64,000 bases of DNA from Escherichia coli (GTDB lineage: Bacteria; Pseudomonadota; Gammaproteobacteria; Enterobacterales; Enterobacteriaceae). Made by a program: the position numbers. This document shows, piece by piece, positions 10,301 through 13,300 of the stretch. The stretch lies in NCBI RefSeq assembly GCF_003334255.1, contig NZ_QOWU01000008.1. The stretch is one strand, 5' to 3'. Each line of letters opens with the position of its first letter. Within the stretch, counting starts at the first letter, position 1.

Positions 10301-13300
10301 ACAGTTCGCCGAGATACTCCCGGAAAACGGTGGAATAAAGTTTATTGCCTTTAAACGTACGGCGAATAAAGAACGCCCCCAGACGGCGGAAAATCGGCCC
10401 GGCAGGCCAGAAATTCAGGTTGATCCCGGCGGCGATATGCGGCGGCACCAGCCCCTGGTGATACAGCACGTAAGAAAGCAGCAGGTAGTCCATGTGACTG
10501 CGGTGGCAAGGCACATATACCAGCTCATGACCGTCGTGGGCCAGCTGGCGAACGCGCTCAGCGTTATGGACGTTGATGCCCTGGTAAAGTCGGTTCCAGG
10601 TGAAGCCCAGAATACGGTCAGTCAGGCGAATCATCTCGTAAGAGAAATTCGCCGCAATCTCTTCCATCAGTGCAATCGCGTTCTGCTGCGCTTTTTCATG
10701 GGAGATTTTTTTGCTGCGCGCTTCATCTTCTACCGCTTTGGCAATGGCGCGGGAGGCGAGCAGCTTATTAAACAGATCCTGACGAGCAGGCAAACGTGGG
10801 CCTACGGCAGCCAGACGTTGACGGGCAAAGTGCATACGCGCCACGCGCGCCAGTTTCTGAGCGATAGTTTTATCCGTGCCGTGTTCATCCGCCATACGGC
10901 GCAGCGAAACTGACGGCGAGAAACGCACAAAACTGTCGCGACCGAGCCACAGTACAGCGAAAAATTTCTGTACGCCGTTAAGCATACGCAGCGGCGGGTT
11001 CACTTCGCCTTTTTCACGCCCCGGCGCGCGACCAAACATCACCGACACTGGCACCATCTGCACATCCAGATTTGGGTTGCTACGGTGCAAATCGAGATAG
11101 TCGTGGAACAGCTTAATAGACTCTTCTTTCGGCGTGTAATAGGTGAACACACGCGGCCCGCCGTGAATGAACACATAGCGCGGCAGTAGCGTGCCGTCGA
11201 TTTCCAGCGGCTCTAACGGGTCAGGCAAGTCATGTGCCAGACACTGGGCGCGCAACGTCAGCAAATCTGCTTTCGAGTTGTACGGTAAAACGTACATAAT
11301 TGGACGAGAGGTATCCAGCCCCAGTTCCGGGGCAGGATCTGCCGGAATAGACTTGCTTTTTACCAGGATGCTTAATGGTAAATTCAGTAATTTGTAGTAA
11401 ATTCGTGGCCAGCCGGACATAAACGATGTAAAGCCTCTGGTTAATAATGCAAATGCGCGGCAAGGATAGCAGAAAGTCATGGGAAATTCTGTGGTATCCG
11501 CTCATGTTTCGCGCGGCGCTACGCAAACCCGAATCATCGGATTTAACGGTACACTGATATTGACGCTCATAATGTAAAAAGGTTCTTTCAATGGCCAATA
11601 ATACCACTGGATTCACCCGAATTATCAAAGCTGCTGGCTATTCCTGGAAAGGTTTACGCGCTGCATGGATCAACGAAGCGGCATTCCGTCAGGAAGGCGT
11701 AGCGGTATTGTTGGCGGTGGTCATCGCCTGCTGGCTGGATGTGGACGCGATTACCCGCGTGCTGCTTATCAGCTCCGTGATGCTGGTGATGATTGTGGAA
11801 ATCCTCAATAGCGCCATCGAAGCAGTGGTTGACCGAATTGGCTCTGAATACCATGAGCTTTCCGGACGCGCAAAAGATATGGGATCCGCTGCGGTGCTGA
11901 TTGCCATTATCGTCGCCGTGATTACCTGGTGCATTCTGTTATGGTCGCATTTTGGATAACCCTTCCAGAATTCGATAAATCTCTGGTTTATTGTGCAGTT
12001 TATGGTTCCAAAATCGCCTTTTGCTGTATATACTCACAGCATAACTGTATATACACCCAGGGGGCGGAATGAAAGCGTTAACGGCCAGGCAACAAGAGGT
12101 GTTTGATCTCATCCGTGATCACATCAGCCAGACAGGTATGCCGCCGACGCGTGCGGAAATCGCGCAGCGTTTGGGGTTCCGTTCCCCAAACGCGGCTGAA
12201 GAACATCTGAAGGCGCTGGCACGCAAAGGCGTTATTGAAATTGTTTCCGGCGCATCACGCGGGATTCGTCTGTTGCAGGAAGAGGAAGAAGGGTTGCCGC
12301 TGGTAGGTCGTGTGGCTGCCGGTGAACCACTTCTGGCGCAACAGCATATTGAAGGTCATTATCAGGTCGATCCTTCCTTATTCAAGCCGAATGCTGATTT
12401 CCTGCTGCGCGTCAGCGGGATGTCGATGAAAGATATCGGCATTATGGATGGTGACTTGCTGGCAGTGCATAAAACTCAGGATGTACGTAACGGTCAGGTC
12501 GTTGTCGCACGTATTGATGACGAAGTTACCGTTAAGCGCCTGAAAAAACAGGGCAATAAAGTCGAACTGTTGCCAGAAAATAGCGAGTTTAAACCAATTG
12601 TCGTTGACCTTCGTCAGCAGAGCTTCACCATTGAAGGGCTGGCGGTTGGGGTTATTCGCAACGGCGACTGGCTGTAACATATCTCTGAGACCGCGATGCC
12701 GCCTGGCGTCGCGGTTTGTTTTTCATCTCTCTTCATCAGGCTTGTCTGCATGGCATTCCTCACTTCATCTGATAAAGCACTCTGGCATCTCGCCTTACCC
12801 ATGATTTTCTCCAATATCACCGTTCCGTTGCTGGGACTGGTCGATACGGCGGTAATTGGTCATCTTGATAGCCCGGTTTATTTGGGCGGCGTGGCGGTTG
12901 GTGCAACGGCGACCAGCTTTCTCTTTATGCTGTTGCTGTTTTTACGCATGAGCACCACCGGGCTGACTGCGCAGGCTTATGGTGCCAAAAATCCTCAGGC
13001 ATTAGCCCGTACGCTGGTGCAACCGTTGCTGTTGGCGTTGGGGGCTGGGGCGTTAATTGCGCTGCTGCGTACGCCGATTATCGATCTGGCGCTGCATATT
13101 GTTGGCGGTAGTGAGGCAGTCCTGGAACAGGCGCGGCGCTTTCTTGAAATCCGCTGGTTAAGCGCACCGGCGTCGCTGGCGAATCTGGTATTACTCGGTT
13201 GGTTACTCGGCGTGCAATATGCCCGTGCGCCAGTAATTTTGTTAGTGGTCGGCAATATCCTCAACATTGTGCTGGATGTCTGGCTGGTGATGGGGCTGCA

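Follow-up and report, generated by a model that had tools for sequence, protein, structure and literature searches.

The window analysed here, a stretch of 64,000 nucleotides from Escherichia coli (contig NZ_QOWU01000008.1 of assembly GCF_003334255.1), contains the SOS repressor gene lexA, and directly upstream of this gene lie two closely spaced binding sites for its own product, the SOS boxes. We are highly confident that this region is the autoregulatory control region of E. coli lexA, and that the following gene, dinF, is expressed by read-through from the lexA promoter. The two sites are the known LexA operators through which lexA is autoregulated, an assignment that is correct, ordinary and already known, and for which no contradicting evidence was encountered. 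Their functionality is supported by motif strength, by a phylogenetic footprint in the Enterobacterales, by the occurrence of a double site in other species and by published mutagenesis (PMC7440846). The region between lexA and dinF contains a hairpin that looks like an intrinsic terminator, and it bears on the question of where the dinF coding sequence begins.

The two operators upstream of lexA

The window represents a K-12-like E. coli chromosome, with a single mismatch to MG1655 in 2,501 nt around lexA, and the gene order in this region is plsB (minus strand), dgkA, lexA, dinF, yjbJ and zur (minus strand). The lexA coding sequence occupies 12069-12677 on the plus strand, an open reading frame of 202 amino acids that is annotated as lexA in the K-12 record and in records generated by the Prokaryotic Genome Annotation Pipeline (PGAP). 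The upstream operator, box 1 (“operator II” of Kozuch et al. 2020), is located at 12024-12039 with a 20-mer spanning 12022-12041 and has the sequence CTGTATATACTCACAG. It is followed by the 5-bp spacer CATAA (12040-12044) and by the downstream operator, box 2 (“operator I”), at 12045-12060 with a 20-mer spanning 12043-12062 and the sequence CTGTATATACACCCAG. The start-to-start distance of the two boxes is 21 bp, and box 2 ends 9 nt before the lexA ATG at 12069. The original prediction had placed tandem boxes at 12024-12060, with a 5-bp gap and directly upstream of lexA, and these positions are exact in the sequence.

Both sites are imperfect 16-bp palindromes of the form CTG-N10-CAG whose centre is AT-rich, as in a LexA operator, and the SOS box consensus of the Gammaproteobacteria has been given as TACTG(TA)5CAGTA (PMC6590174). 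The original prediction also described both operators as being of the CTGT-N8-ACAG type, which is accurate for box 1 but has to be amended for box 2, a CTGT-N8-CCAG site. The CCAG-type ending is also found in the published boxes of recN, uvrD, dinI and uvrB (PMC3009722). In that study box 1 is given as the lexA box (Table 4), and box 2 is given for lexA,dinF (Table 7).

The strength of both motifs was evaluated with a symmetrised position weight matrix (PWM), which was built from the 17 SOS boxes that Table 4 of PMC3009722 lists for genes other than lexA and with which the whole window was scanned. Box 1 reaches 19.5 bits and box 2 reaches 18.5 bits, ranking first and second among the approximately 64,000 positions of the window, so that the weight matrix scan that had been proposed as a check of the prediction returns precisely these two sites as the best LexA-motif matches. 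In 200 simulated windows, only 2 of 12.8 million positions scored at least as high as box 1 and 5 at least as high as box 2, and the best score per shuffled 64-kb window was on average 10.8 +/- 2.7 bits (n = 200). For the 17 known sites, leave-one-out scoring gives values between 4.0 and 28.8 bits (median about 20), and both boxes thus score within the range of known sites and above background. That two sites of this kind lie 21 bp apart cannot be explained by chance. Rank 3 is taken by the uvrA/ssb box ACCTGAATGAATATACAGTA (28909-28928, 16.9 bits) in the divergent uvrA-ssb intergenic region, and as this known box was absent from the training set, it provides a positive control within the window. 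The skeleton CTGT-N9-CAG alone shows no enrichment, with 6 occurrences found and 5.7 expected in the window, and it was therefore dropped as evidence in favour of the full matrix. Two further matches were considered as new SOS boxes, one at 42654-42673 in the acs-nrfA intergenic region (11.7 bits) and one at 52012-52031 in the yjcO-fdhF intergenic region (11.0 bits), and both were rejected because such scores are at chance level for 64 kb.

The lexA promoter and its repression

The promoter was placed from the sequence together with the numbering of PMC9210283, a study in which the target cytosines of the methyltransferase Dcm near the lexA promoter are given as +17 and +45. In the two CCAGG sites, the internal cytosines occupy positions 12058 and 12086, and both of them give the same transcription start, +1 = 12042, on the plus strand. 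The -10 hexamer TATACT (12030-12035, plus strand), which matches TATAAT at 5 of 6 positions and is 99% conserved, lies inside box 1, and its last base is 7 nt upstream of the derived start. The probable -35 hexamer is TTCCAA (12007-12012, plus strand), which is 17 nt upstream of the -10 hexamer, matches TTGACA at only 3 of 6 positions and is about 78% identical across 25 Enterobacterales sequences. A consensus promoter scan of the window did not report the lexA promoter, which we ascribe to this weak -35 hexamer.

In this numbering the 20-mer of box 1 extends from -20 to -1 and contains the -10 hexamer, and the 20-mer of box 2 extends from +2 to +21, which means that both operators overlap the core promoter or the start region. 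This agrees with the published description of the upstream operator as overlapping a conserved sequence bound by RNA polymerase (PMC7440846). A Dcm methylation site, CCAGG at 12057-12061, is located in box 2. It has been reported to carry 5-methylcytosine specifically in stationary phase, and LexA was found to inhibit Dcm at this site in vivo, with lexA expression remaining unaffected (PMC9210283).

Most relevant for the function of the two sites is the mutational dissection of the promoter in PMC7440846, which included gel shifts and in which half-site mutations inactivated both lexA operators and abolished repression. In the reading that fits best, two LexA dimers occupy the two boxes, one on the -10 hexamer and one on the start region, and thereby keep RNA polymerase off the lexA promoter. 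LexA repression is relieved by a self-cleavage that RecA stimulates (PMC6590174, PMC7440846). DNA damage, by activating RecA, leads to the cleavage of LexA and to vacant boxes, which raises lexA transcription, and this raised transcription then restores LexA once the damage signal ends. Negative feedback through the lexA operators is at the core of the SOS response. Operators I and II of lexA were reportedly first described in 1981 by Brent & Ptashne and by Little et al.

A weak CTG-N10-CAG match, CTCTGGTTTATTGTGCAGTT, is found further upstream at 11981-12000 and is probably the “operator III” of the literature. With a PWM score of 5.4 bits it is below the chance level, and its identity of 55% across the Enterobacterales equals that of the flanks. 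As operator III, the putative third upstream operator, has in addition been published as non-functional (PMC7440846), we rejected this match as a third functional operator.

Conservation of the double operator

The locus occurs as one copy in each of 5,426 complete E. coli genomes, and the 72-nt promoter stretch from just upstream of the -35 hexamer to the ATG is identical in 5,333 of these. The most divergent E. coli copy carries 34 substitutions per 1,001 nt, all of them in the coding sequences of dgkA, lexA and dinF, and none falls within 11936-12091 or 12677-12823, so that the promoter and the lexA-dinF spacer are unchanged. When 25 Enterobacterales sequences are aligned, identity reaches 92-100% in the box arms (CTGT and CAG) and in the embedded TATACT, compared with 55-62% in the flanks, and this is the phylogenetic footprint of a LexA operator. 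The CTGT and ACAG arms of box 1 are 99-100% conserved, and in box 2 the CTGT arm is conserved to 100% and the CCAG arm to 92%.

For a comparison across a wider range of species, lexA loci were chosen through the DNA encoding one LexA peptide and not through the boxes, which avoids circularity. This gave at least 120 loci, of which 113 were usable, and a site was counted if it lay no more than 250 nt upstream of lexA and reached 9 bits or more. The census covers genomes with the exact anchor peptide from Gamma- and Betaproteobacteria, it is rich in Pseudomonas, and its counts, which here and in the following are counts among the matches listed, are not phylogenetically independent. Exactly two sites were found at 93 of the 113 usable loci, three at 5, one at 13 and none at 2. 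The start-to-start spacing of the pair is 21 bp in 18 of 23 listed loci from the Enterobacterales, 20 bp in all 9 from the Vibrionales and 19 bp in all 37 from Pseudomonas/Stutzerimonas, and the listed Burkholderiales mostly possess a single site (5 of 8).

These data bear on the view that only one box matters, and that the other is a duplicate that is redundant or decaying and has no role. Such a view could refer to the observation that a promoter with a single operator tuned to equal repression shows wild-type behaviour with regard to induction, kinetics and fitness, and to the failure to detect at lexA the cooperativity between LexA dimers that had long been assumed for double operators (PMC7440846). 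It is nevertheless very improbable, because the inactivation of either operator lowers repression and both operators were reported to contribute equally (PMC7440846), and because the double site is kept in 93 of the 113 usable listed loci with a spacing that is fixed within clades. The preservation of this arrangement with its clade-specific spacing argues for long-term selection on both sites. [quoted passage not shown]

Deviating arrangements were also seen in the census. Three strong LexA boxes of 18-20 bits each precede lexA at -85, -45 and -26 in three Amphritea loci, the additional box being located 40 bp upstream of the two that are usually present. Marinobacterium sediminicola possesses two sites only, and these are 40 bp apart (-82 and -42).

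The lexA-dinF operon and the hairpin between the genes

The genes lexA and dinF are adjacent on the plus strand. From 12100 to 12750, no position exceeds 3.8 bits on the LexA matrix (the lowest value of the top-15 list) and no promoter-like site was found on the plus strand, as would be expected of an operon. The co-transcription of the two genes, which the original prediction had assumed in calling them an operon, is supported by published work. A review describes dinF as a gene without its own operator that is co-transcribed with lexA (PMC6590174), tiling arrays show a single UV-induced transcript that runs through lexA and dinF without a break (PMC3009722, Fig. 4), and the occupancy by RNA polymerase rises across lexA-dinF in chromatin immunoprecipitation on microarrays (PMC3739934, Fig. 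3B). Accumulation of dinF mRNA was also seen after ciprofloxacin, with a log2 fold change of up to 3.0 (PMC11002266). The gene is thus expressed by transcription that continues from the lexA promoter, with no operator of its own.

A transcription terminator would not be expected between the genes of an operon, yet a terminator scan identified an intrinsic-terminator-like element at 12688-12723 on the plus strand. Its GC-rich stem of 13 bp closes a loop of 4 nt (12688-12717) and leads into the T-run TTTGTTTTT (12715-12723). As RNA, this is a GC-rich stem-loop followed by the U-run UUUGUUUUU, which is the composition of an intrinsic terminator. The hairpin begins 11 nt after the lexA stop codon and has a predicted folding energy of -24.1 kcal/mol (z = -4.5), with none of 200 shuffled sequences being as stable. 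The Rfam database gave no RNA family in the lexA-dinF region. Because of this hairpin the operon must work by read-through, which qualifies the operon assignment and does not overturn it.

A similar element occurs in related bacteria. Among the 15 dinF-linked junctions of the matches listed, the window included, 9 have a GC-rich hairpin at +11 to +15 after the lexA stop, with stem sequences that are unrelated to each other, and in 8 of the 15 the fold reaches z <= -2.6 relative to shuffled sequences. Hairpins at the same offset and with different sequences are found in Enterobacter, Leclercia and related genera. From its anatomy and its recurrence, the hairpin at 12688-12723 looks like a leaky intrinsic terminator, and we infer that termination would be partial. 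RNA polymerase would have to read through it in order to reach dinF, and dinF mRNA would then probably be a minor fraction of lexA mRNA.

Several points have to be set against this reading. No significant hairpin directly follows lexA in the dinF-linked Klebsiella BIGb0407, Rosenbergiella and Serratia oryzae, and among the orthologous hairpins the U-tail is of uneven quality. According to the legend of the tiling arrays the transcript is continuous, which implies that any termination at the hairpin is incomplete. A search of the available literature for a described lexA-dinF terminator, or for a measurement of read-through or termination, yielded nothing relevant.

As the opposite extreme, the hairpin could be an efficient terminator, in which case dinF would be transcribed mainly from its own promoter and would not form a true operon with lexA. 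Its canonical anatomy, with the 13-bp GC-rich stem running into TTTGTTTTT, would fit this, as would an evolutionarily loose linkage of the two genes: dinF directly follows lexA in 12 of the 20 listed Enterobacterales loci with at least 1.5 kb of downstream sequence, it is located about 1 kb from lexA in 3 of 7 listed loci from the Vibrionales, and it is not linked to lexA in any of the 32 Pseudomonas/Stutzerimonas and 6 Burkholderiales loci listed. However, there is no plus-strand promoter-like site and no LexA box between the genes, yet dinF is inducible by damage (PMC11002266), and both the single continuous induced transcript (PMC3009722) and the co-transcription described in the review (PMC6590174) contradict an independent promoter. 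We therefore think that an efficient terminator can hardly be realized here, and read-through of a leaky one is the reading that we prefer.

In two Citrobacter loci, the Escherichia hairpin is replaced by a palindrome, GCCGGATAAGACGTTTGCGTC[GA]CCATCCGGC, which is located in the lexA-dinF spacer at 20-50 nt beyond the lexA stop and extends the distance between the genes to about 130 nt. This spacer palindrome presumably is a repetitive extragenic palindromic (REP) element.

The start codon of dinF

The original prediction placed dinF 19 nt downstream of lexA. This is in accordance with the annotation of the K-12 reference, in which dinF begins at an ATG at 12696-12698 (plus strand) with an 18-nt gap, but it does not fit the conserved start at 12750, which is separated from lexA by 72 nt and by the terminator-like hairpin. 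From the conserved start, the dinF coding sequence extends over 12750-14075 on the plus strand and encodes an efflux transporter of the MATE family with 441 amino acids, as supported by the PGAP annotation and by a methionine that is conserved across genera. PGAP places the start at 12750 in three PGAP-annotated E. coli records. In all 14 listed relatives that have dinF after lexA, the homology begins at the methionine matching 12750, which is the first residue of the motif M-x-[FL]-[LF]-T-x-x-D-K-A-L-W.

The upstream ATG at 12696 would give a protein of 459 amino acids and is probably not the real start. The additional 18 residues at the N-terminus are not conserved, and even in E. albertii the ATG that corresponds to 12696 is not in frame. 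In other genera, the frame upstream of the conserved methionine is interrupted by stop codons or lacks a start codon. In 7 of the 14 listed relatives, namely two Citrobacter, the metagenome-assembled genome CTSoil132, Klebsiella, Erwinia, Pantoea and Serratia, the frame opens only +66 to +192 after the lexA stop, or a stop codon closes the frame before the conserved methionine. On this basis we infer that the real dinF start is most likely the ATG at 12750, which makes a mis-annotation of the start in the K-12 reference probable.

Two points speak against this assignment. The MG1655 record has dinF from 4257742, corresponding to 12696 in the window, which is the first ATG of the open reading frame and lies 18 nt after the lexA stop at 12677, and a strong Shine-Dalgarno sequence is present at neither of the two candidate starts.

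If the K-12 annotation were correct, the hairpin would be coding sequence of the longer DinF and not a terminator, and the two genes, 18 nt apart, would be tightly co-transcribed without attenuation. Besides the record itself, the reading frame that E. coli keeps open between the lexA stop and 12750 and the one continuous transcript of the tiling arrays (PMC3009722) could be cited for this. We consider it unlikely in view of the lack of conservation of the 18-residue extension, the homology that in all 14 listed relatives starts only at the methionine matching 12750, and the use of 12750 by PGAP in the three E. coli records. The ATG at 12696 is moreover buried in the -24 kcal/mol stem, and the recurrence of the hairpin in other genera with unrelated sequences would be unexpected for a coding sequence. 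A start at 12750, preceded by a leaky terminator, is thus in better agreement with the comparison. The corrected dinF start and the terminator-like hairpin are useful for the design of dinF constructs and for models of SOS gene dosage.

Comparison with other SOS promoters

The locus is the same as the E. coli K-12 lexA promoter: both box sequences are the published ones, and the Dcm site, the overlap with the -10 hexamer and the +1 position fit the published map. The only difference to the K-12 record concerns the dinF start (12750 here and 12696 there), whereas the operators are identical.

A possible parallel for the expression of dinF is offered by the gene recX, which requires read-through of a terminator located after recA in order to be expressed. 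The pairs lexA-dinF and recA-recX are treated alike in a review (PMC6590174), since in both of them the second gene lacks a LexA box and is transcribed together with the SOS gene upstream of it. More than one CTG-N10-CAG LexA box per promoter region is likewise found at recN and at plasmid-borne colicin genes, which are named in PMC7440846. In contrast to these promoters, the pair at lexA serves the negative autoregulation of the repressor gene.

Considering these points jointly, we lean towards a view with two components. First, the dinF start at 12696 in the K-12 record would be wrong and the one at 12750 real, with a conserved leaky terminator setting a low ratio of DinF to LexA transcripts. 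Second, the double operator is kept across the Gammaproteobacteria with a spacing that is constant within clades and differs between them (21, 20 or 19 bp), which would suggest that the constraint is set by the geometry of the promoter, where one site covers the -10 hexamer and the other the early transcribed region, and not by a contact between LexA dimers.

Other features of the window

Four tandem Rfam matches to naRNA4 (CssrE) are located at 50864-51273 with a distance of about 113 nt, and single copies are present at 140-210 and 40258-40328. These matches are probably repeats of the REP type or of the bacterial interspersed mosaic element (BIME) type. On the minus strand, the Hfq-binding small RNA sraL is found at 32880-33020 with an Rfam score of 153 bits. 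A selenocysteine insertion sequence (SECIS) element with an Rfam score of 87 bits is located at 53742-53796, also on the minus strand, at the upstream edge of the minus-strand open reading frame 52061-53740, which we take to be fdhF interrupted at the selenocysteine UGA.

The overlapping open reading frames 15275-15529 and 15520-16260 correspond to one frameshifted DUF2713 pseudogene in the PGAP annotation of strain 300709, and a frameshifted pseudogene annotated as “SopA family” is found at approximately 5657-7237. Strain 300709, which served as the reference for the annotation, also carries an IS150 insertion at its positions 24513-25882 that truncates aphA and is absent from the window (at about 24500). 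Beyond that point, the coordinates of strain 300709 therefore differ by about 1.4 kb from those of the window.

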